Virus record (IMG/VR): IMGVR_UViG_2534681702_000003
Span: 1 to 33,145 of that record
Length of the DNA: 33,145 nucleotides
Direction: 5' to 3' (one strand)
Source: a virus
Taxonomy: Duplodnaviria > Heunggongvirae > Uroviricota > Caudoviricetes
Positions 2,760 to 14,849 of this stretch are shown here, one piece after another; the first letter of the stretch is position 1, and each line of letters starts with the position of its first letter. The notes under the pieces are model-generated. The model had not been told where the DNA came from. It ran no database searches and saw only the letters and a list, made by a program, of their open reading frames with translations. The translations under genes and the position numbers were made by a program.

Positions 2760-3889
2760 TTTGCATTCGGTTTTTCGTTGTCCGGAATTGCCGTTTCCAC
2801 TGCATCAGTTTCTGGTACTGGCGACGAGAGAGTATCAGTTGCGCTCTGATTTGTTCCTTCATCTTCAAACACGCCCTTTGTAGTCAGGTATTCAGTAATG
2901 TATTTGTTCAGTGCCACAGAGTCTTTGTGAATGTCGATCGGACGTTCACGAACAAGGCCAAAAATAGTCTGGCGGTCGTAGCGAAGGGCATCAGGCTGTT
3001 TGCGCATTGATGCCGAGATACGCTTCCAGTCTTCGCGGTCGTTGTCGATAACTTCATTTTTTGCCCAGCGATGGATGCTGCCGCCAATGTTTCCGGCATC
3101 CACATCACCAGGCCAGAGAGCGTAGGCCAGTTCATCATCCAGTGTTTTCCATGTCTGCTTGTATTCGCGACGAATGACTGCAGTGACAGGGTGGATTTTT
3201 TCTGCTGAGTTTTCAGTGTACTGTTGATTGGCTCTGGCGCGGGCGAGATCAACAACAGACGTGTATTTCCCGGTTTCCTTGCGTTCACCTTCGCGACGTT
3301 TTTTCCAGATGCGCATCTCTGCCTGAATTTCGGGCCATTTGGCACCAGGCTTACATTTATGCTTAACCCACCCGATGGCATGCAGCTTAAGCTCCGGATA
3401 CATGGCGTTAACTTCTGGCATTTTCATCAACGCTTCAACGATATGTCCGTCGAATGTTGCCATGTCTTCCTGCAACAATTCCTGCGCGCTAATCACCATA
3501 TCAACGGTGATGTTTTCACATGTGTCGAACTTAACCATGACAGCGTTCTGTACTTCAGGGGCCAGCTTGTCAAAAGTGACGTTCATCGGATCTGATTCAG
3601 TCTCAACCGGGACAAAGGAAGCAGACTCCTCATCCCAGCGGTTTTCCTGCATATATTCAGCATCCCAGGAATCGAGGGCAGGGCGGGGTATACCGGGCTT
3701 ATCCTCGCAGATAATAAATTTATAAGCGCAGTCCTGAGCAGCCGGATAATGTTCCAGGAATTGCCAGTGAAATTTTGCTCGAGCACGGCGTTCGTCGCCA
3801 GCTTCAATGGCTGTGGCTACAGCCACAGCGCCTTCTTCCCTTGTTGCCAGTTCGTCAGGAATAGCGGCGCAAATAAAGACTTTACTCAT
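2738..3889 (-). CDS. Hypothetical early-left operon protein (383 aa)
   Basis: Long ORF, GAGG RBS upstream of ATG at 3889, overlaps start of exonuclease gene; no family recognised. Confidence 0.6.
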   Translation of the reverse strand: MSKVFICAAIPDELATREEGAVAVATAIEAGDERRARAKFHWQFLEHYPAAQDCAYKFIICEDKPGIPRPALDSWDAEYMQENRWDEESASFVPVETESDPMNVTFDKLAPEVQNAVMVKFDTCENITVDMVISAQELLQEDMATFDGHIVEALMKMPEVNAMYPELKLHAIGWVKHKCKPGAKWPEIQAEMRIWKKRREGERKETGKYTSVVDLARARANQQYTENSAEKIHPVTAVIRREYKQTWKTLDDELAYALWPGDVDAGNIGGSIHRWAKNEVIDNDREDWKRISASMRKQPDALRYDRQTIFGLVRERPIDIHKDSVALNKYITEYLTTKGVFEDEGTNQSATDTLSSPVPETDAVETAIPDNEKPNAKWKSNHL

Positions 3890-3969
3890 TTTGTTTTAAC
3901 CTCATTACAGATTTAAGGGTGAACAAATCCCTGCCATTGCTGGCATATAAAAATGAAACCGGATATTAA

Positions 3970-4173
3970 TTACGGTGCTGTTTTAAGTCCTGCCGGGATT
4001 TCGTTATTATCCATGTGAATAACTTTATCGACCGGATAACAGTTACCGGGAATTTTCTGTTCCACTGCGGCAACCATGCATTCTTTCATTGAGCCGTATA
4101 CGCCAGTAACCATGTCAACCGGTTCACCGGAAACAAGAAAAACCGTCAGAACAAGTGCAAATGTAGTATTCAT
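3970..4173 (-). CDS. ydfD: YdfD-like small protein with N-terminal hydrophobic segment
   Basis: 67 aa from MNTTFALVLTVFLVSG...; start overlaps dicB stop (ATGA); same position as ydfD downstream of dicB in Qin. Confidence 0.55.
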   Translation of the reverse strand: MNTTFALVLTVFLVSGEPVDMVTGVYGSMKECMVAAVEQKIPGNCYPVDKVIHMDNNEIPAGLKTAP

Positions 4174-4358
4174 TGCCAGCATCCTTTTTGCATCAGGCGT
4201 AAACGGGCCAGCATTGAAACAATGCATATTTTATCCAATAGCTCCCGTTCTTGTTTCCTCTTGTTAATGGCATCTTCAGTAAATACTGGGTTACTGATAG
4301 TGACACCAATTTCAAAACAACCTTCAGACGTATTAACGTTTGGTAATAACGTTTTCAT
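4170..4358 (-). CDS. dicB: Cell-division inhibitor DicB
   Basis: 62 aa MKTLLPNVNTSEGCFEIGVTISNPVFTEDAINKRKQERELL... matches recalled DicB almost residue for residue; GAGGGTG RBS. Confidence 0.8.
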   Translation of the reverse strand: MKTLLPNVNTSEGCFEIGVTISNPVFTEDAINKRKQERELLDKICIVSMLARLRLMQKGCWQ

Positions 4359-4527
4359 TATCGCACCCTCAACAATGAATTTTGTGATGCGGTGCCTGGT
4401 GCCTCCAGGTGACGTTAACCAGTTAACAATTAACGCCGGATACAGAGAACCCATCCATAACACTGTTTTTGGTTTTAACTGTTCCGCGTGCGCTCAGCCG
4501 CATTCACCGCATCACAAAATTCACTTT

Positions 4528-4585
4528 AAAAAGGGCAGCAGAGCAGTCACGGAGTAAAACTGATACCACCAAACGTCACCAGAAA
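4528..4585 (-). ncRNA. dicF: DicF small RNA
   Basis: Minus-strand sequence UUUCUGGUGACGUUUGGUGGUAUCAGUUUUACUCCGUGACUGCUCUGCUGCCCUUUUU matches recalled DicF, ends in U-tract, lies immediately upstream of dicB. Confidence 0.8.
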
Positions 4586-4920
4586 ATTGATAACAGAGGG
4601 CGTTGCAGCGGGGTTGTCACTTAAGCGTATGGTCAACCTGGCAACCCGGTGTCTCAATGGGGGAGGAATAACCCCGCCATACTTACCGCCGCGCCATTTC
4701 GCGGAGTGCCACAACCGGAAGCGCACGGTCGAATTAAATTTAACGACACCGTACAGTGAGACGAACTTCGCCGTGCGCTTTCGCGTTATGCCCTGGCTTT
4801 TCAGGGATATATCCTTTCAGTAAACTGTCAGTACCGGATTCTTATCCGTGTCCGGCGCACGACCACACGTGGCAGCGTGTTGGTCTCCATTTTTAACCCA
4901 GAACCTCAATGGAGGATAAA

Positions 4921-5130
4921 ATGCCAAACAAAAAAAGAAATCCGCTTATTGAAAAACAGATTGAATGCCTGGTAAATCAACTCAGGCAATCAGGGTTATT
5001 AAAAACTCATTCAGAGTTGAGGCTCACAGAATCAGCATTCGACGATAAATTAAATAATGTCCTTTATAATGGCATTATTGATTTTAATCGTTCAGTTGGT
5101 CGCCTCGGCCCTGCTGGTGTTTCCTTATAA
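4921..5130 (+). CDS. Hypothetical small protein (69 aa), opposite orientation to early-left operon
   Basis: ATG at 4921 preceded by GGAGGAT; stop abuts stop of convergent 212-aa gene; no homology recognised. Confidence 0.35.
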   Translation: MPNKKRNPLIEKQIECLVNQLRQSGLLKTHSELRLTESAFDDKLNNVLYNGIIDFNRSVGRLGPAGVSL

Positions 5131-5769
5131 TTACCAGTCAATCCAGAGCGGACCGTGTTCAGCGTAAATATAACTGTACACATCCAGATTATATTTGTGG
5201 TCTGTTAAGAACAGGCCGCAAATACATGCCGAAGCTTCCAGGGCAGCGGCTCTGTTACTGAATAACCATGTGGCAACATTCCAGCGTTTTTCTGCATCCC
5301 AGTCTTTCTCAAGGCCTGATACCATGAAGAAACCGTTAGTGTTGCCATCAAATAATTCTGTTTCCAGATTTTTAAGCAATGCCTGATGGACTCTTGCCAG
5401 GTATTCCGCCGGAATTTCGCCACGAATTCTGATGAGATTGTCATAAACAAACATGTTCCCCGCATATGGCGATTTTTCTTTCTTGTTTTTTAAACCAGCA
5501 TCATGAGCAAACTGATCAATTTCTTCTTCCGTTGGTTTCGTATTGATGTTTTGCGCTGTCGTTTCTGCAATTTTATTTGCCACACTATCTGAGTCGTGTT
5601 TATTTACAGACGCACAGAAATACAATCCGGTAAACGCATCGCGCACATTACGAGCCATATTATCAGTGTCTTTTTTCGTTACCGATTCCAATGCAAGTTC
5701 GTTCAGACGATGACGAAGTGTGTGTGCTGCAATCTCCTGGATTGAAGTAGGTAAATCTTTAAATTCCAT
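5131..5769 (-). CDS. Hypothetical protein (212 aa)
   Basis: ORF with GAGG RBS before second ATG (MEFKDL...); start overlaps stop of upstream DUF1391-like gene. Confidence 0.6.
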   Translation of the reverse strand: MEFKDLPTSIQEIAAHTLRHRLNELALESVTKKDTDNMARNVRDAFTGLYFCASVNKHDSDSVANKIAETTAQNINTKPTEEEIDQFAHDAGLKNKKEKSPYAGNMFVYDNLIRIRGEIPAEYLARVHQALLKNLETELFDGNTNGFFMVSGLEKDWDAEKRWNVATWLFSNRAAALEASACICGLFLTDHKYNLDVYSYIYAEHGPLWIDW

Positions 5770-6014: not shown

Positions 6015-6225
6015 GTTCTTACGCCTCGGGCTGGCTACTTAACCCCTGACCACTGCCGGGTAACTCGAAGTATTGCCCTGCATTCTGTGGGGTGGAGTGA
6101 GGGAATGAATGAAGTTTAGAAAAATGAACTTTACAGGTCAATGTTTTTTTATCAAAACATTTTAAGCAGGCAGCTGTTAAGCCATCACCACGATGGCATA
6201 CAGTTAATCAAATAGATGAGGTTGG
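6015..6225. promoter_or_regulatory. Putative leftward early promoter/operator region (pL/OL-like)
   Basis: Non-coding gap downstream of cI; contains GTTTTTTTATCAAAAC (6143-6158) sharing the GTTTT-N6-AAAAC pattern of the cI-cro intergenic sites. Confidence 0.4.
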
Positions 6226-6864
6226 TTAAATATCTTGTTGAATTTTAAAGCATACGCCCAATATGCAAGATAGATCATCCAGCATAATTGAAGGGTAGCG
6301 AGGATTCGTGGGGACTAAAAGAATATCCGGCCCTTCTATCTCCAGTTTACGAATGACAGGTGTTGTGGTCCCTTTGGGTAAGGCAAGGACAATATTTCCT
6401 GGTTGTACGGTTCGATCGGGATCAACAAAAACTGTTGAACCATTTGGGATGGAAACTCCCCCACCAGATGTTGACATACTGTCACTCTCTAGAACAACTG
6501 CAAAGGTATTGGCCGGGATTTCTCCGACAAGCTGCACACAAGAGGTTATTGAGGAATTTTTCATATAATCACTCCAGCTTGCTGCCTGCTGAAGTGATAG
6601 TAGCGGAACCGTTTTTATCGGCGGTAAAGATAGATCAAGCGAATCACCTGTATTTAACTCTCCTCCATTAAGAAGCCAATTTTCGTTTACTTTCAATATC
6701 TTTGCCAGTGAACTTATGTAACGCGAGGACGGCGCTCCTCCACCGTTCATCCATTGACTTACGGAGCCTTTTGATGCGCCAGTGGCATTGACAAGGTCTT
6801 TGCCTTTCAGGTTTAGCGCATGCATACGTTGGGTTATGCGTTCAGATATTGTTTGCTTGCTCAT
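6226..6864 (-). CDS. CI-like prophage repressor (N-terminal HTH, C-terminal S24 LexA-like peptidase)
   Basis: 212 aa; HTH LKGKDLVNATGASKGSVSQW; C-terminal ...AVVLESDSM... (GDSM-like catalytic Ser motif); divergent from cro-like gene. Confidence 0.88.
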   Translation of the reverse strand: MSKQTISERITQRMHALNLKGKDLVNATGASKGSVSQWMNGGGAPSSRYISSLAKILKVNENWLLNGGELNTGDSLDLSLPPIKTVPLLSLQQAASWSDYMKNSSITSCVQLVGEIPANTFAVVLESDSMSTSGGGVSIPNGSTVFVDPDRTVQPGNIVLALPKGTTTPVIRKLEIEGPDILLVPTNPRYPSIMLDDLSCILGVCFKIQQDI

Positions 6865-6955
6865 GTTTTGATTTTAAAACACAGATGGTTTTGTTTCTTG
6901 ACTTTCTTTGGTTTTGATTATTAAACTTTTGGCGTTCAGTTTTATGGAGCGACTC
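6865..6955. promoter_or_regulatory. Divergent promoter/operator region between cI and cro-like gene
   Basis: Two 16-bp sites GTTTTGATTTTAAAAC (6865-6880) and GTTTTGATTATTAAAC (6911-6926), imperfect palindromes, about 46 bp apart. Confidence 0.55.
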
Positions 6956-7186
6956 ATGAAAAAATCAGAAGTATTAGGCTATTTTGGCGGAGTTGTTAAA
7001 ACAGCCGCAGCTCTAGGAACGTCAAAAACCACAGTCAGCATGTGGGGGGAAGAGGTTCCGTGGAAATGGGCGTTGCTAATTCAGGCAGTCACTGCCGGGG
7101 CGCTCAAATATGAGTTACACATACCGACGGTTGTCATTCCCGGTTCTGATCATAATCCGCCTTCTAACCAAGGGGGGGATTCATGA
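6956..7186 (+). CDS. Cro-like HTH regulator (YdaS-like)
   Basis: 76 aa from ATG 6956 (GGAG RBS); first gene of rightward operon opposite cI. Confidence 0.65.
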   Translation: MKKSEVLGYFGGVVKTAAALGTSKTTVSMWGEEVPWKWALLIQAVTAGALKYELHIPTVVIPGSDHNPPSNQGGDS

Positions 7187-7608
7187 AAATCAAGCATGAA
7201 CACATCCGCATGGCGATGAATGCCTGGGCGCGTCCTGATGGCGAAAAAGTTCCAGCAGCTGGAATAACCCAGGCTTATTTTGAGTTGGGTATGACGTTCC
7301 CAGAACTGTATGACGACAGCCATCCGGAAGCCCTGGCTCGCAATACCCAGAAAATTTTCCGCTGGATAGAGAAAGACACCCCTGATGCAGTTGAAAAAAT
7401 TCAGGCGTTGTTACCAGCGATCGAAAAGGCAATGCCACCTTTGCTGGTGGCCAGAATGCGCAGCCACAGTTCAGCTTATTTTCGGGAGCTGGTGGAGACG
7501 CGGGAGCGACTGGTGAGAGACGCTGATGATTTTGTCGCAGTGGCAATCGCCGGTTTCAATCAGATGAACCGTGGTGGCCCGGCAGGAAATGCTGTGGCAG
7601 TGCATTGA
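7183..7608 (+). CDS. YdaT-like protein (proposed CII functional analogue)
   Basis: 141 aa starting MKIKHEHI..., as recalled for YdaT; start overlaps cro-like stop. Confidence 0.55.
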   Translation: MKIKHEHIRMAMNAWARPDGEKVPAAGITQAYFELGMTFPELYDDSHPEALARNTQKIFRWIEKDTPDAVEKIQALLPAIEKAMPPLLVARMRSHSSAYFRELVETRERLVRDADDFVAVAIAGFNQMNRGGPAGNAVAVH

Positions 7609-7679
7609 GTGATAATAGCCATATCGAATCACTTCCGGCAACTCGTGAGTAAAAAGATTCGGTATCAGAAGAGGTGAGT

Positions 7680-8750
7680 ATGGCTAACGCCTGGCTCAGA
7701 TTATGGCATGACATGCCAAATGACCCTAAGTGGCGAACAATTGCCAGGGTGTCAGGGCAGTCAATTGCAACAGTGATGGCAGTGTATATCCACCTCCTGG
7801 TGAGCGCGTCACGAAATGTCACGCGAGGTCACATTGATGTCACGACAGAAGATTTGGCAAGTGCGCTCGACGTGACAGAAGAGGTAATTGATTCAATTTT
7901 GCAGACGATGCAGGGGCGGGTACTTGATGGTGATTTAATCACTGGATGGGAAAAACGCCAGGTGCTTAAAGAGGACAACGGCAATATTTCGCAAACCGCA
8001 AAATCTCCTGCAGAGCGCAAGAGGGCGCAGCGAGAGAGGGAAAGAAAGCGGGAACAAAATGGCGATTGTCACGGCGCGTCACGAAATGTCACGCACATGT
8101 CACGACGAGTCACGACAGATAAAGATACAGATAAAGATACAGATCAAGAAGATCAAAACACTATGGTCCATGGCGTAAAAAACGCCACGAACCAGGCAGG
8201 GGATGTTCAGACCGTCAATCTTGGTCAGCCAGCAGGCACGACACCGGAAGCCGATTCAGCGTATGCGCTGAAAGCCGATTCGGGCGCTGTGCAGCAGGTG
8301 ATGACCGCAAGGCCGGAGCAATCACACCAACTGCAGCAGCCTGAAGCCGATTCCGCCATTCAGCGGGAAGCCGATCGGGTAGTCACGGAAAACACCGGGC
8401 AGCCTGTGAGACGAGTGGATTATCCGGATGTGTTCGAACAGGTCTGGCGGGAATACCCGTTGCGTGCTGGGGCAAACCCGAAGAAATCCGCTTTCAGTGC
8501 CTGGAAGGCCAGATTACGCGAGGGGGTGTCACCAGAGGCCATGCTGGATGGCGTGAGGCGTTACGCAAGATACCTTGCGGCTACCGGGAAAACGGGAACG
8601 GAATTTGTTCAGCGAGCGACGACGTTTTTTGGACCGGACCGGAATTTTGAAAACCCCTGGCTGCTCCCGGTAAGCGGCACGAACAACCAGCGTTGTGTGA
8701 ATCATATTTCTGAACCGGATACCGAAATTCCACCGGGCTTCAGGGGGTAA
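7680..8750 (+). CDS. Replication initiation protein (O-like)
   Basis: 356 aa; position after cro/cII analogue; two iteron clusters embedded in the coding sequence as in lambda O. Confidence 0.65.
   Translation: MANAWLRLWHDMPNDPKWRTIARVSGQSIATVMAVYIHLLVSASRNVTRGHIDVTTEDLASALDVTEEVIDSILQTMQGRVLDGDLITGWEKRQVLKEDNGNISQTAKSPAERKRAQRERERKREQNGDCHGASRNVTHMSRRVTTDKDTDKDTDQEDQNTMVHGVKNATNQAGDVQTVNLGQPAGTTPEADSAYALKADSGAVQQVMTARPEQSHQLQQPEADSAIQREADRVVTENTGQPVRRVDYPDVFEQVWREYPLRAGANPKKSAFSAWKARLREGVSPEAMLDGVRRYARYLAATGKTGTEFVQRATTFFGPDRNFENPWLLPVSGTNNQRCVNHISEPDTEIPPGFRG
7804..7847. repeat. Iteron cluster I (4 x GTCACG at about 10-bp spacing)
   Basis: GTCACG at 7808, 7818, 7828(GTCAC), 7839; shares 19-bp GCGTCACGAAATGTCACGC with cluster II. 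Confidence 0.7.
8066..8160. repeat. Iteron cluster II plus AT-rich tandem repeat (putative ori)
   Basis: GTCACG at 8068, 8078, 8088, 8099, 8109 (10-11 bp periodicity), then GATAAAGATACA x2 and GATC-containing AT-rich stretch. Confidence 0.7.
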
Positions 8751-8790
8751 GTGTTGATTTCTGGTCATGAGGTAATTTTCAGGAGGACTT

Positions 8791-9213
8791 GTGGCAAAAG
8801 TTTTTACACAAGAAGAGCGGGAAAAAATTAAAGGGCAGGTTGTTGAACTCGTACGCCAGAGTGGGCGCGAGACGTTACGACAACTGGAAACTAAAACTGG
8901 GGCAACAAGATATCTGATGAGCGTTCTGGCCAGAGAGCTGGTTGCCAGTGGCGATGTATACAACTCTGGTTACGGGTTATTCCCGTCTGAACAGGCGCGT
9001 AAGGACTGGCAAAATGCCCGTAAAAAGCTCTCAAGGGCAAAGCTGAAGAAACCATCTGCGGTTGATCCGGACCTTATCTGGTCATTACCTGACGGAGAAA
9101 TACGTCGCTACGACAGGCGTCAGAACATAATCTGTCGCGAGTGCCGGAAGAGTGAGGTTATGCAGCGAGTGCTGGCGTTTTATCAGGGTAATTTTCAGGA
9201 GGTGATGGCGTGA
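8791..9213 (+). CDS. Hypothetical protein (140 aa), replication-module position
   Basis: GTG start with AGGAGG RBS; no family recognised. Confidence 0.55.
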   Translation: MAKVFTQEEREKIKGQVVELVRQSGRETLRQLETKTGATRYLMSVLARELVASGDVYNSGYGLFPSEQARKDWQNARKKLSRAKLKKPSAVDPDLIWSLPDGEIRRYDRRQNIICRECRKSEVMQRVLAFYQGNFQEVMA

Positions 9214-9505
9214 GAGTGAGAGTCTATATCGCCGGTCCAATGACCGGGTATAAAAATTTCAACCGTGAGGCGTTTCACAATGCGGAAGAGGAACTGAAAC
9301 GGGAAGGGCATACCGTTTTAAATCCGGCTGTGCTTCCGGATGGGCTGACACAGCCGCACTACATGGATATTGCATGGCAATGATTCGTTGTGTGGATGCG
9401 ATTTACATGCTGAAAGGCTGGCAGCGGTCAGCAGGTGCTAAGGCAGAACTGGCGCTGGCGGAGAAACTGGGGCATGCAGTTATTTTCCAGGAGGAGGTAC
9501 AGTGA
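9210..9505 (+). pseudogene. DUF4406-like (nucleoside 2-deoxyribosyltransferase-like) gene split by a frameshift
   Basis: N-part VRVYIAGPMTGYKNF...HYMDIAWQ stops at 9381-9383; C-part MIRCVDAIYMLKGWQRSAGAKAELALAEKLG... continues in another frame from 9380. Confidence 0.5.
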
Positions 9506-9777
9506 ATATCGACGCAACAATGACGATTGGTACGGCCCTCAATACGGGGCTGGCGCTTCTTGGTTGGTGCTACATCATGTTCTGCTCATGGCGGTGGCTG
9601 TCACTGATGTTACTGAAAGAATGGAATAAACGCTGTAAACAGACGCAGCGGCAGAAGGCAATGAATGCGTTTTTTGAGACCTTCGATATTGACAGTATAG
9701 AACCAGGAGAGCCAGCTCGCGTGATTAGCAGAGGTGACGTTGTAATTCTTGTATACCGGAGTGAAGAGAAAGCATAA
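9502..9777 (+). CDS. Hypothetical small membrane protein (91 aa)
   Basis: GTG start after AGGAGGAGG; one predicted hydrophobic helix. Confidence 0.45.
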   Translation: MNIDATMTIGTALNTGLALLGWCYIMFCSWRWLSLMLLKEWNKRCKQTQRQKAMNAFFETFDIDSIEPGEPARVISRGDVVILVYRSEEKA

Positions 9778-9891
9778 TCCAAATCTGAATAATTAAATCC
9801 AGCACTGTAAATAAAATTTAATCCTTAACCGGAGGGATTTCTGCACCCTCAGAACATCAGGAGGCCGCCCGAAAGGGCGGTGGAGATAATA

Positions 9892-10416
9892 ATGGAAATA
9901 ACTAAAGAACGATTATTGGAAATAGCAAATCTTAGTGAAAGGGCATTAAGTGATGGGAGGATTATTTCTCCTGATGCTTATGAATCAGTTACAAGTATAG
10001 AAATAATAACGATGGCCAGGATGCTTCTTGGTTGCCTCAAAAAAGAATATAAAAAAAAGGTGGATAGCAATGCTAATATATATGATATTTTGGACAGTTG
10101 GGGGGCTTGGGCTGCAGCTGGAAATAGTTCTATCAACTGGCAGCAAGTGGCTGATAAATATAAAGATGTAGTACCTCATGGTAAGAAATTACGCCGTCAG
10201 TGTGGCAACGATGAAGGTCGTATGATTGATACCTGCATGTTGAAGCTTAAACAATATAGAATAGATGACTATGAGTTAATTATCGCTCATTTTGTTATAG
10301 GTATATCTTTGCGTACAATAGCACGAAGGTACAAATGTTCAGATGGAACAATAAGAAAGAATATACAACTTACAATGGGAGTATTGTTAGGATTGTCTTT
10401 TTATGTGCAATTATAG
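9892..10416 (+). CDS. Antitermination protein Q-like (phage 82/QuuD family) with about 60-aa N-terminal extension
   Basis: Motifs LDSWGAWAAAG, RRQCGNDEGRMIDTCMLKLK, CSDGTIRKNIQ align with recalled QuuD (WGAWAA, CCDDDAMIICGCMARLKK, CSDGYIGKRLQ); GGTGGAG RBS; GNRA hairpin CCGCCCGAAAGGGCGG at 9864-9879. Confidence 0.65.
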   Translation: MEITKERLLEIANLSERALSDGRIISPDAYESVTSIEIITMARMLLGCLKKEYKKKVDSNANIYDILDSWGAWAAAGNSSINWQQVADKYKDVVPHGKKLRRQCGNDEGRMIDTCMLKLKQYRIDDYELIIAHFVIGISLRTIARRYKCSDGTIRKNIQLTMGVLLGLSFYVQL

Positions 10417-10421
10417 ATATA

Positions 10422-10901
10422 TCACATGAGCCTTGTTATGTCCTTTAGACGCGACCAGGTAGTATAAAATTTTTTAAATGTAATAAGCAGGAAAAAAATT
10501 CCCACTTGGAGTAATAGTTGGGCATATGTGTGCTCGTCGGCATCTTTTACTAGTGGGAATTTAAACTTTAGTGTATCAGGGAAAAATAATAAAATGATAA
10601 AAATAATACAAACTGATAGTAACCATCCCATAGTGGAGTGCATTTCTTCGGTCAGTTTTTTCAAATAACCAGTTTTTCCTATATTTCTAATTAGCGTATT
10701 ATCTCTAGCTGAAGCAATCAAGGTAAGCGAACCTAAAACAAAGCCAAATAATATCCCAGAAAATGTAGAAACGGCCGAAGCGATTGGCTGAATTTGTGCA
10801 AAATTTAGCTTTGCAGAAAGAGGCCATGCGATGATACAAAAAACAACAGAGGCTAAATTATAACCATAACTGTACAAAGTTATCAATTTCCCCTTTTTCA
10901 T
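10422..10901 (-). CDS. Four-helix membrane protein (159 aa), RexB-like architecture
   Basis: Four hydrophobic segments (about aa 16-30, 40-64, 90-107, 126-143); GGAG RBS; 15 bp downstream of the 304-aa gene. Confidence 0.75.
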   Translation of the reverse strand: MKKGKLITLYSYGYNLASVVFCIIAWPLSAKLNFAQIQPIASAVSTFSGILFGFVLGSLTLIASARDNTLIRNIGKTGYLKKLTEEMHSTMGWLLSVCIIFIILLFFPDTLKFKFPLVKDADEHTYAQLLLQVGIFFLLITFKKFYTTWSRLKDITRLM

Positions 10902-10916
10902 ACCATCGCTCCAAAA

Positions 10917-11831
10917 TTAATCAACTCTTTGATTGGCTACTCCAAAGTATGCCTTCAATTCATCATCTTTACTATCTTTTGCAAGAGTTAAGGCGCTCCA
11001 AATGCTGCCAACTAATGGATACCTACCTCCAAGTTCAACATCTGTGTAGTAGACTAATTTGTCTGCTACAAGATCGATAGGATGCTGTACACCGGTCTCA
11101 ATGTCTTGGGTTTCTAGTTTAAGTTTTTCAACCTCAAAAGTCTCTAGTGTTTCTTTAAAGGCTCTTTTTAGTTGAGAACCTAGATAGCGAGATTCAGGAT
11201 CTTCAGAACGACTATCCCCACGTAATGTAAGATTTACTTTGGCAGAATTAGTACCATTTAGAGTGGCTATCAATGCATTGTTGAAGTTATGTTCAATATC
11301 CTCATATAGTTGCACATTCTTTGGCCGAGCGATACCGATTTCTAGAGTTTTGATTCGAACTTCATTACGCATCAACCACTTTAAACTACTGGTCTGAATG
11401 ATGGGATTAACAGTTGTATTTTGTGAACTGTTGGAAAGATATTTACTTAATAGCAACCAGCCATAACAGAGTCTGTTTCGTTGAATTATTAAAACTGAGT
11501 CTTGGGTATAAAAATGAAAATAAGCTTTTTCTAATAAGTTTTCATTGATTTCAAGTTTAATTTCTCTTTCTTCACCTCCGGCTACAGCAACATGAGGGAG
11601 ATTATTGGTTCTGTGTTTTCCTATAACTCCCCTGAAACCATAGTCGGTTCTTTCCATGAAGCGCATTTCAACTAGTTTATTTCCTATTTTACGTACAGTT
11701 TTGTCTCGGCCTTCGCTGTATGACTCAAAAATTTTTGAAAAAACAGCTTCAGGTGAATTAACTCCTGCATTTGTATCAGTGCTTATAGTGTGACATTGAT
11801 AAAAATCGAAGAAAAAGCGCTTGCTAGCCAT
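10917..11831 (-). CDS. Hypothetical soluble protein (304 aa), first gene of two-gene operon
   Basis: Uninterrupted low-GC ORF; no recognised domain; upstream AT-rich 270-bp promoter region. Confidence 0.75.
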   Translation of the reverse strand: MASKRFFFDFYQCHTISTDTNAGVNSPEAVFSKIFESYSEGRDKTVRKIGNKLVEMRFMERTDYGFRGVIGKHRTNNLPHVAVAGGEEREIKLEINENLLEKAYFHFYTQDSVLIIQRNRLCYGWLLLSKYLSNSSQNTTVNPIIQTSSLKWLMRNEVRIKTLEIGIARPKNVQLYEDIEHNFNNALIATLNGTNSAKVNLTLRGDSRSEDPESRYLGSQLKRAFKETLETFEVEKLKLETQDIETGVQHPIDLVADKLVYYTDVELGGRYPLVGSIWSALTLAKDSKDDELKAYFGVANQRVD

Positions 11832-12154
11832 TGCAAAAATTTCCTGTAAAAAATAATTACATACTTAAGATACTACAAAGAATAATGCGTACGCAAAATT
11901 TTTTGTTGAGTAGAATATGTTCGCGGGGTATTTTTCGTTAAGATATAATTACCATGGTAACTTTTGCGTTGGTAATGCATTATGTGGTGGAGAAAAAGAG
12001 AGAGTCTTATCTTTAAATTATCGCCAGCCTATATGACTATATGAGTAGTATTTAGATGGGAAATTGTTGAGTTATTGAAAGGAACCATAACCTTTATGTA
12101 AAATTACTGCGGGTGCTTGAGGTTATCTGTCTCAGGCATGCCACCAAAAGGCAG

Positions 12155-12232
12155 ATAGAGAAAAGCCCCAGTTAACGTTACGCGTCCTGCAAGACGTTTA
12201 ACATTAATCTGAGGCTCAATCTATGAACGGCA
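12155..12232 (-). ncRNA. Predicted Sok-like antisense RNA
   Basis: Inferred from hok/sok organisation; candidate minus-strand promoter TTGCCT-17-TAACCT inside mok 5' end; boundaries approximate. Confidence 0.3.
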
Positions 12233-12435
12233 AATCTAGGTTAGCCTCTTACGTGCCGAAAGGCAAGGAGAAGCAGGCTATGAAGCAGCAAAAGGCGATG
12301 TTAATCGCCCTGATCGTCATCTGTTTAACCGTCATAGTGACGGCACTGGTAACGAGGAAAGACCTCTGCGAGGTACGAATCCGAACCGGCCAGAAGGAGG
12401 TCGCTGTCTTCACAGCTTACGAACCTGAGGAGTAA
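12223..12435 (+). CDS. Mok-like in-frame leader ORF overlapping hok
   Basis: 70-aa ORF whose last 51 codons are hok; same arrangement as mokC/hokC. Confidence 0.5.
   Translation: MNGKSRLASYVPKGKEKQAMKQQKAMLIALIVICLTVIVTALVTRKDLCEVRIRTGQKEVAVFTAYEPEE
12280..12435 (+). CDS. Hok/Gef-family type I toxin
   Basis: 51 aa MKQQKAMLIALIVICLTVIVTALVTRKDLCEVRIRTGQKEVAVFTAYEPEE, near-identical in pattern to recalled Gef/HokC; AAGGAG RBS. Confidence 0.85.
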   Translation: MKQQKAMLIALIVICLTVIVTALVTRKDLCEVRIRTGQKEVAVFTAYEPEE

Positions 12436-12503
12436 GAGACCAGGTGAGGGAGAAATCCCTCGCCACCTCTGATGAGTCAGGCATCCTCAACGCACCCGCA
12501 CTT

Positions 12504-12530
12504 AACCCGCTTCGGCGGGTTTTGTTTTTT
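12504..12530 (+). terminator. Rho-independent terminator of hok transcript
   Basis: AACCCGC-TTCG-GCGGGTT followed by TTTGTTTTTT. Confidence 0.7.
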
Positions 12531-13932: not shown

Positions 13933-14298
13933 ATGACTGAACGCATAGAATTTGTTTTGCCTTACCCGCCAACGGTGAACACTTACTGGCGACGTCGTGG
14001 CAGCACATATTTTGTATCAAAAGCCGGTGAGCGTTATCGCCGTGATGTGGCGCTTATTGTTCGCCAGCAGCGGCTGAAATTAAACCTGTCCGGAAGGCTG
14101 GCGATAAAGATTATTGCAGAGCCACCGGATAAACGTCGTCGTGACCTGGACAATATCCTGAAAGCACCACTGGATGCGCTGACGCATGCCGGACTTCTCA
14201 TAGACGACGAGCAGTTTGATGAAATCAATATTGTGCGCGGTCAGCGCGTTCCTGGGGGGCGGCTGGGCGTGAAGATTTACAAAATTGAGAGTGAGTGA
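13933..14298 (+). CDS. rusA: Holliday junction resolvase RusA
   Basis: 121 aa; LPYPPTVNTYWRRRG...RRRDLDNILKAPLDALTHAGLLIDDEQ matches recalled RusA pattern. Confidence 0.85.
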   Translation: MTERIEFVLPYPPTVNTYWRRRGSTYFVSKAGERYRRDVALIVRQQRLKLNLSGRLAIKIIAEPPDKRRRDLDNILKAPLDALTHAGLLIDDEQFDEINIVRGQRVPGGRLGVKIYKIESE

Positions 14299-14849
14299 TC
14301 GTAAATATGATATACCCGGAAATTACAGGCAAAAGCGGCGAGCATTTACGTCTAAAAACGCTGGAAGCCGTCTGGATCCAGGGGAAATTACGGATGTGGG
14401 GGCGTTGGTCGTATATAGGTGGTGGCAAACCAGGAAATATGTTCAATCAGTTGCTGGCATCCAAAAAACTGACAAAAACCGCAATCAATGAAGCCCTGCG
14501 TAGAATCAGGGAGTCAGGGATTGATAAACCAGAGCTGGAAGCATTCTTGCGAGAGATGATCGCTGGCAGACAGAAGAGCTGGTTGTCTCACTGTACTGAT
14601 GCAGAGGCGTTACGCATTGATGGGGTGATAAGTAAAGCGCTTGCACGTTATCCTGGATTGATTGATATCCTGCGGCAAAGGTACGAAGGGCGGGGGATGA
14701 GTAAACGCAAAATGGCTGAATTGTTGAATGAGGTGCACCCGGAATGGTGTTTTAGTACATGCGAAAAGCGAATTGCTAATTGGTTAGCTGTTGCTGAATA
14801 TGCGCTATACATCCCTATGCGAGAATCGTTTGCTCAAAAAATGTCTTGA
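14295..14849 (+). CDS. Putative late-gene antiterminator (Q-like)
   Basis: 184 aa directly after rusA and before a terminator, tRNAs and lysis genes; MWGRWSY motif and HTH-like GMSKRKMAELL; family not confirmed. Confidence 0.5.
   Translation: MIVNMIYPEITGKSGEHLRLKTLEAVWIQGKLRMWGRWSYIGGGKPGNMFNQLLASKKLTKTAINEALRRIRESGIDKPELEAFLREMIAGRQKSWLSHCTDAEALRIDGVISKALARYPGLIDILRQRYEGRGMSKRKMAELLNEVHPEWCFSTCEKRIANWLAVAEYALYIPMRESFAQKMS

Follow-up and report, generated by a model that had tools for sequence, protein, structure and literature searches.

The described systems closest to the one considered here are RexA and RexB of phage lambda (8TWQ; phrog_12654 and phrog_14878), RexABpp of the Pseudomonas putida prophage P1 (PP_5643/PP_5644), and the actinophage pairs Sbash gp30/gp31, CarolAnn gp44/gp43, and Butters gp30/gp31, each of the latter consisting of a soluble protein and a protein with four transmembrane (TM) helices that are expressed from the prophage and provide heterotypic defense. 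Five Rex-like systems have been described so far, according to a paper of January 2026 (PMC12894663). RdgC, IML3, CHL4, and an epimerase are among the structural relatives reported for RexA (PMC11077077), and the cytoplasmic loop in the center of Sbash gp31 is both conserved and essential (PMC6426596). Here, we analyze a stretch of 33,145 nucleotides from a virus of the Caudoviricetes (IMG/VR record IMGVR_UViG_2534681702_000003, positions 1 to 33,145), referred to below as the window, which corresponds to an Escherichia coli prophage. A slot between its replication genes and a hok/sok locus holds two foreign low-GC modules, one being a Q-like gene and the other a two-gene cassette encoding a DUF6731 protein and a small membrane protein, and we favor the reading that this cassette is a remote relative of rexA-rexB with a function in RexAB-type exclusion of other phages. 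The features of the slot and its two edges are as follows, where GC3 denotes GC content at third codon positions.

9502 to 9777, plus strand: DUF4752 gene, closing the conserved backbone on the replication side (Pfam PF15944, E 3.8e-43; RefSeq DUF4752 family protein; GC 47.5%, GC3 0.52)
9778 to 9881, plus strand: conserved intergenic linker of 104 nt, the left mosaic joint (43% GC; 90-96% identity in about 3000 E. coli genomes)
9892 (9880) to 10416, plus strand: Q-family antiterminator-like gene, 174 amino acids (aa), cargo module 1 (Pfam Phage_antitermQ; GC 35%)
10422 to 10901, minus strand: RexB-like four-helix membrane protein, 159 aa, second cassette gene and proposed effector (AlphaFold2 model; PADLOC RexB hidden Markov model)
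10917 to 11831, minus strand: RexA-like cytosolic DUF6731 protein, 304 aa, first cassette gene and proposed sensor or DNA-binding component
11832 to 12093, minus strand: AT-rich leader of the cassette with a putative promoter, 262 bp, 31% GC (cross-genus comparison)
12094 to 12440, plus strand: hok/sok (hokD-type) type I toxin-antitoxin locus, the right mosaic joint (Pfam HOK_GEF, E 1.8e-23; Rfam sok)

The fold of the first cassette protein provides a link to a known system. An AlphaFold2 model built from 34 homologues is of moderate quality (predicted local distance difference test, pLDDT, 70; predicted template modeling score, pTM, 0.64), being confident at both ends and weak in residues 150 to 260. 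When it is compared with the PDB by Foldseek, the sole significant match is lambda RexA (8twq_A; E 2.2e-5, probability 1.0), aligned end to end, and the model displays the RexA architecture of a globular domain that is split plus a domain for dimerization, with RdgC, IML3, and CHL4 as relatives. Its structural neighbors, CENP-N excepted, are those published for RexA (PMC11077077), and this overlap is, at the level of the model, an independent consistency check. The low-confidence middle of the monomer would likewise fit the layout of RexA, in which the dimerization domain is inserted in the split globular domain. The protein is labeled a DUF6731 family protein in RefSeq and falls into phrog_7651 (function unknown) rather than phrog_12654. 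The family comprises 801 representatives at 50% identity (E <= 1e-3), drawn from Gammaproteobacteria, a Geomonas genome, and a Saprospiraceae metagenome bin. One database names a Photobacterium DUF6731 member as DUF4747-containing.

The second cassette protein is modeled by AlphaFold2 (pLDDT 79) as four long helices spanning residues 3-30, 34-64, 79-106, and 126-158. Lysine and arginine are enriched at the N terminus, in the loop between TM2 and TM3, and at the C terminus, and the positive-inside rule would accordingly place both termini and the central loop in the cytoplasm, a topology also predicted for Sbash gp31; conservation within the family peaks in TM2 and the TM2-TM3 loop. The PADLOC hidden Markov model of RexB matches 24 of 27 family members, with a best E of 5e-6 and an E of 0.0015 for the membrane protein itself, whose PADLOC matches (RexB and PDC-M18B) are all below threshold, so that it does not count as part of a system cataloged in PADLOC-DB v2. 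Alignment with the single lambda RexB sequence in hhalign (E 0.04) adds in-register support only, and a Foldseek search of the model against viral models (BFVD) places a 165-aa Sbash protein at rank 7. RefSeq calls the protein hypothetical and PHROGs assigns it to phrog_8552, of unknown function. The link of this protein to RexB is weak; its position, as a small four-pass membrane protein directly downstream of the RexA-like gene in the same operon, is that of RexB.

Placing the pair into its genomic context gives additional insight. In the window, the DUF6731 and membrane-protein genes lie 15 nt apart with GGAG in the spacer, and the two are kept together in every locus examined, about 34 in all. 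The DUF6731 gene precedes the membrane-protein gene in 8/8 distant bacterial genomes (Photobacterium, Aeromonas, two Pseudoalteromonas, a Saprospiraceae metagenome-assembled genome, Endozoicomonas, Marinobacterium, and Geomonas), where the genes are adjacent or overlap, as well as in all 20 IMG/VR viral contigs, down to 25% identity, and in Klebsiella, Rahnella, Vibrio, and Pseudomonas phage loci. Most of the contexts are temperate phages of unrelated types, in which the pair occupies accessory positions, for example:

Klebsiella lambdoid prophages: pair between Q and the holin gene
Marinobacterium Mu-like prophage: pair just before the lysis genes
Vibrio: pair adjoining an integrase gene
Photobacterium: pair beside resolvase genes
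Rahnella: pair on a plasmid-like contig
Pseudomonas phage AUS531phi: cI (285 aa), DUF6731 homologue (E 1e-59), and TM partner (E 4e-14) in one orientation

The order in AUS531phi is the lambda cI-rexA-rexB arrangement, and in two other loci (L047 and L048), an XRE-like open reading frame (ORF) containing a helix-turn-helix motif lies upstream of the pair in the same orientation. AUS531phi was the only match in tblastn searches of deposited phage genomes, and tblastn against plasmids gave no match. As for RexAB, carriage is by temperate phages and prophages, here the 20 IMG/VR contigs and lambdoid, Mu-like, and other prophages. Since the GC content of the cassette lies below that of its flanks in most hosts, the cassette seems to come from a low-GC source and to travel as one unit.

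Comparison across genera also suggests that the cassette has its own promoter. A promoter-like footprint, TTGCGT followed by 18 nt and TATCTT or TATATT, is common to E. coli, Klebsiella, and Rahnella at 35 to 65 nt before the ATG, and outside this block the sequences upstream of DUF6731 in the three genera diverge. In the window, the candidate -35 element TTGCGT (11896-11891) is separated by the 18-nt spacer from the -10 element TATCTT (11872-11867), and an AGGA ribosome-binding site precedes the DUF6731 ATG. The same upstream region contains a perfect 12-bp palindrome, TTACCATGGTAA, at 11949-11960, a further TGGTAA at 11970-11975, and inverted copies of TTTTGCGT, namely ACGCAAAATTT at 11891-11901 and AACTTTTGCGT at 11959-11969; the palindrome and the inverted copies may constitute an operator for some regulator. 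In E. coli, silencing by H-NS typically targets AT-rich islands of this kind.

By analogy with lambda RexAB, Sbash gp30/31, CarolAnn gp44/43, and P. putida RexABpp, it can be hypothesized that both proteins are expressed in the lysogen from the promoter of the cassette, antisense to the early operon of the prophage. Upon infection by another phage, the RexA-like protein, as a presumptive DNA-binding component, would sense a phage product or a DNA-protein intermediate and would then activate the RexB-like membrane protein, which could dissipate membrane potential or integrity, with the outcome that the infected cell would stop growing and the infection would abort. It is conceivable that, on induction of the prophage itself, antiterminated early transcription would run antisense through the cassette.

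Several results weigh against this interpretation. The DUF6731 family has no significant relationship to RexA in hhalign (E 0.76 with 34 sequences and 0.022 with 111), a profile of the 111 members returns weak eIF2-alpha matches and not 8TWQ from the PDB sequences, and phmmer of the DUF6731 protein against the same sequences gives a chance match only. Pfam scans of the 34 and 111 family members detect DUF6731 only, with neither RexA nor DUF4747, and the DUF6731 protein has no PADLOC match at E <= 0.1. As all sequence routes to RexA are negative, the link to RexA is therefore a purely structural one. For the membrane protein, hhalign with 14 aligned RexB homologues keeps TM1-TM3 in register, a point in favor, with E 0.007 and a probability of 5%, a Pfam scan at E <= 0.01 finds no family and hence no RexB, and the BFVD search yields no match below 1e-3, with lambda RexB outside the top 50. 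The promoter scan shows no site for the cassette on the minus strand here and no excess over shuffles, and the consensus scanner would have missed the proposed promoter because its -35 element is weak. No terminator was detected by the terminator scan after the operon, so the cassette transcript would run antisense into the Q-like gene. Finally, a full-text literature search found no paper mentioning DUF6731.

The lack of a sequence-level link between DUF6731 and RexA bears directly on one alternative, that convergence, or an origin too remote to be informative, accounts for the likeness to RexA and RexB and that the pair instead serves superinfection exclusion at DNA entry, a toxin-antitoxin function, or lysogenic conversion. 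The RexA/RdgC/IML3 fold is a general DNA-binding scaffold (PMC11077077), small four-helix membrane proteins are structurally unspecific, and the viral fold search above gave no clear answer. We nevertheless judge this unlikely, as two independent signals, ranging from weak to strong, point to the two partners of one and the same system, RexA for the first gene and RexB for the second, and as the pair agrees with RexAB in the order of its genes, the sizes of its proteins, and how many membrane helices there are, with the cI-adjacent position in one phage in addition.

It could also be speculated that the pair has the RexAB architecture without an anti-phage role, tuning the lysogeny-to-lytic transition of its own phage or serving next to hok/sok in maintenance or stress. 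The bistable switch of lambda is biased by RexA, a DNA-binding protein, independently of RexB (PMC11077077), the cassette adjoins the hok/sok addiction locus, and the repressor gene stands immediately upstream of it in AUS531phi, L047, and L048. Here and in the Klebsiella, Mu-like, and Vibrio elements, however, the cassette occupies accessory positions far from the immunity region, and it moves between unrelated phage types and a plasmid-like contig; a self-contained module of benefit to the host therefore fits better than a regulator of a single switch. As the experimentally studied Rex-like pairs summarized in the P. putida paper all confer exclusion (PMC12894663), a role confined to lysogeny or maintenance seems improbable to us, and RexAB-type exclusion remains the preferred function.

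That the cassette is cargo follows from the composition and the edges of the slot. The initial annotation had described a foreign low-GC island of about 2.3 kb, with three AT-biased genes and an AT-rich spacer, that returns to host-like GC at hok and represents a moron rather than core prophage, and the numbers bear out this description. The GC content is 0.50-0.57 at 7000-9750, drops to 0.32-0.39 at 9751-12250, and is 0.47-0.55 after 12000, being back at backbone level from the hok/sok locus onward. Delimited on the left by the upstream gene's stop codon and on the right by the renewed homology with other prophages (9778-12093), the island has 35.6% GC, against 50.2% in the remainder of the window. 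This is the lowest value among 526 segments of equal size, about 3.4 standard deviations under the mean, as the 525 other segments of 2316 bp have a minimum of 42.4%, a mean of 50.5, and a standard deviation of 4.3. The three ORFs are present as claimed, together with the 262-bp spacer, and GC3 amounts to 0.274 in the Q-like gene, 0.312 in the membrane-protein gene, and 0.269 in the DUF6731 gene, against 0.47-0.68 in seven flanking genes, so that base composition and codon usage both deviate from the surrounding phage genes. An origin of the low GC in membrane-protein composition was considered and rejected, since GC3 is just as low in the two soluble proteins. A low-GC island alone is an ordinary feature of lambdoid prophages.

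The boundaries were defined by pairwise blastn against ten related loci. On the right, where the initial annotation had put the limit at the 5' side of hok, a sharp joint at 12094/12095 is found in every hok-bearing allele. On the left, it had placed the limit at a GNRA hairpin. The hairpin is real (9864-9881; a 7-bp stem, 9864-9870/9875-9881, with a GAAA loop) and stands at the end of the conserved flank, with the first cargo gene beginning about 10 nt beyond it, whereas the first 104 nt of the interval (9778-9881) have to be reassigned from cargo to backbone. Left joints lie at 9881 in three alleles (L022-L024), at 9929 in L003 and L021, and at 10368-10386, within the 3' end of the Q gene, in L018 and L002. 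With joints at the linker and at hok, the slot is therefore the linker-to-hok interval, and two exchangeable modules make up the island. The otherwise unrelated first cargo genes of L003 and L021 share the first 12-14 codons of the Q-like gene (MEITKERLLEIANL..., 9892-9929), which puts a mosaic joint inside the coding sequence.

The linker is always found directly 5' of the first gene of a variable block, and L019 has a further, 100% identical copy of just the 24-nt hairpin between two of its cargo genes (3702-3725). A role as intrinsic terminator was rejected, as no T-run follows; the hairpin may be a recombination joint or an element of RNA processing or stability.

Of 5426 complete E. coli genomes, about 3000 contain the linker, followed by varied genes, and 4738 match some part of a 3.1-kb query, mainly the flank on the hok side; the Q-like gene is full-length in 68, and the complete three-gene island is present in 19. 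Presence and absence at the same position with sharp joints among related prophages, and three genes that are not the usual occupants of the site, are what is expected of a moron. In the related prophages sampled, at least six alternative cargos lie between the same two joints:

L002 (E. coli 602354), 6018-8373: Q (83% aa identity) and, both on the minus strand, an NA37 nucleoid-associated protein of 380 aa and a protein of 406 aa whose C-terminal helices are hydrophobic
L018 (E. coli E7-1N7), 3612-5076: Q (74% aa identity) and, on the minus strand, a 309-aa protein and a multi-TM protein of 182 aa
L019 (E. coli F9792), 3738-5221: a 70-aa gene and, on the minus strand, a 310-aa protein and a multi-TM protein of 184 aa
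L003: a single 138-aa gene
L021: a hypothetical gene, an HNH endonuclease gene, and another hypothetical gene
L022: eight small ORFs

In Rac/Qin-like lambdoid prophages of E. coli, the interval between the linker and hok/sok is thus a slot for hypervariable cargo. In L002, the NA37 (YejK/NdpA-like) DNA-binding gene overlaps the 406-aa gene and is convergent with the Q-like gene, as the cassette is here. In L018, the type I restriction-modification genes hsdM and hsdS replace the DUF968-rusA block to the right of hok (6412-8627), so that beyond hok, too, there is a variable site that carries defense genes.

The first module carries a Q-like protein that consists of an N-terminal extension of about 60 aa (phrog_3323) and a Q domain (Pfam Phage_antitermQ, PF06530, E 2.8e-30, residues 66-172), with phrog_79 and phrog_3323 as its PHROGs assignments. 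It is 74-83% identical to the Q proteins of L018 and L002, which carry other downstream cassettes, and the 3' end of the Q gene is the left homology arm for cassette swapping in E. coli (L002, L018). Its C-terminal domain is 57% identical to a 122-aa Q of Klebsiella prophages that is also convergent with the same cassette. As the DNA homology between the window and Klebsiella (73%) extends from mid-Q to exactly the DUF6731 start codon (10069-11832), the combination of Q and a convergent cassette represents an old linkage, which was probably formed in a cargo site between Q and the lysis genes and later moved to the early-region slot. With the homology ending at that start codon, a cognate late promoter region was not carried over, and neither a late promoter nor a qut site was identified for the Q-like gene. 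A reading of the low-GC block as core prophage, with a functional late regulator and regulatory AT-richness, might appeal to the intact Q-family domain and to the homologous Q being the only Q in the Klebsiella prophages, where it stands before the lysis genes, but it is highly improbable and largely refuted by the presence/absence data, as the block is missing from more than 99% of genomes with the same flanks, a second Q-related gene, DUF1133 (14295-14849), holds the canonical place, which follows rusA and lies upstream of the lysis genes, all three coding sequences show the GC3 shift, and the Klebsiella homology stops short of any late promoter region.

The surrounding prophage is 100% identical over this region to a prophage adjoining potCD in several human isolates of E. 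coli, among them ATCC 43896; this strain and similar carriers are of the enterotoxigenic E. coli type. It is a lambdoid, Rac/Qin-like prophage whose genes run from the integrase, exonuclease, dicB, a LexA-family repressor, cro, ydaT, a replication-organizer gene, DUF977, DUF4406, and DUF4752 through the island to hokD, DUF968, rusA, DUF1133, a methyltransferase gene, tRNAs, the lysis genes, and the terminase. The prophage is defective because cro and DUF4406 are frameshifted, the latter being split into ORFs at 9210-9383 and 9374-9505, and an IS66-family element splits the large terminase gene (ATCC 43896 prophage, L001). The RexAB-like cassette is intact despite the defective state of the prophage and is 99.8-100% identical across 12 genomes.

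At the right edge of the slot, Rfam sok (RF01794) matches 12111-12285 with 108.7 bits, and the promoter scan finds a promoter-like site by hok/sok at 12075-12104. Rfam gives no match inside the island, and the only matches to its right are sok and a sub-threshold one to the Hfq-binding small RNA isrK, just downstream of hok at 12444-12525 (24 bits, where the gathering score is 50; E 0.025). The GC content falls a second time, to 0.38-0.40, at 18500-19250; this stretch, which has the lysis genes on one side and the small terminase gene on the other, contains ORFs of 69 aa (18581-18790) and 71 aa (18914-19129) and may be another cargo insertion.

It can be proposed, rather tentatively, that the DUF6731 family and its membrane partner represent a widespread and unrecognized RexAB-type branch across many temperate phages, and that the linker-to-hok slot is a dedicated hotspot for such cassettes. 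The idea of a hotspot derives from at least two sequence-unrelated pairs (about 310 aa and about 183 aa) in the same slot and the same antisense orientation and from the NA37 DNA-binding protein that is paired, again in this slot, with a protein having C-terminal membrane helices; for these other cassettes it is a matter of gene sizes and hydropathy. The pairs of L018 and L019, which have no sequence relation to each other or to the DUF6731 pair and are similar to it in size, order, and orientation, could be further RexAB-like pairs. Speaking against a defense hotspot, PADLOC finds no match in the cargos of L002, L003, L018, and L019; for the L018 and L019 pairs, neither PADLOC nor Pfam gives anything convincing and PHROGs gives unknown function, and hhalign of the alternative-cargo proteins of about 310 aa against the DUF6731 profile returns nothing. 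If the proposal is true, several hundred diverse sequences would join the RexAB type, one of them in an easily manipulated E. coli prophage in which exclusion is testable against standard coliphage panels, and this diversity would help to find what is conserved in sensing and in A-B coupling, such as the invariant TM2-TM3 loop. The slot itself is present in about half of complete E. coli genomes, and its occupants are almost all unannotated and invisible to PADLOC.

When compared with known systems, the slot resembles prophage moron slots and defense hotspots such as those of P2/P4 (PMC9122126) and the site of stx between Q and the lysis genes in having fixed flanks, alternative cargos, deviant composition, and apparently independently transcribed cassettes. 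It differs from the P2/P4 hotspots in that a literature search aimed at it did not find the linker-to-hok slot described as a hotspot and in that the sampled cargos lack PADLOC matches. Neither Pfam, PHROGs, PADLOC, nor RefSeq gives the DUF6731 pair a Rex-like annotation. RexABpp of P. putida prophage P1, whose proteins were compared by description only, has two larger partners (RexApp-His, 37.5 kDa; RexBpp, at least 181 residues) (PMC12894663). The A proteins of the actinophage pairs carry a DUF4747 motif shared with RexA, for which the present family has no match, whereas the conserved TM2 and TM2-TM3 loop of the membrane family and the 165-aa Sbash protein among its structural neighbors are points of likeness to Sbash. 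In contrast to lambda, where RexA and RexB belong to other PHROG families, the pair here belongs to families of unknown function, with a DUF6731 protein that has no detectable sequence homology to RexA, and it resides outside the immunity region, in a low-GC cargo slot flanked by the replication genes and hok, where it runs antisense to the early operon, apparently under its own promoter. What it has in common with lambda RexA/RexB is the two-gene operon with a soluble protein first (304 aa here, 279 aa in lambda) and a small four-helix membrane protein second (159 aa here, 144 aa in lambda), RexA as the best structural match of the first protein, a second family that matches the RexB hidden Markov model, and carriage by temperate phages.

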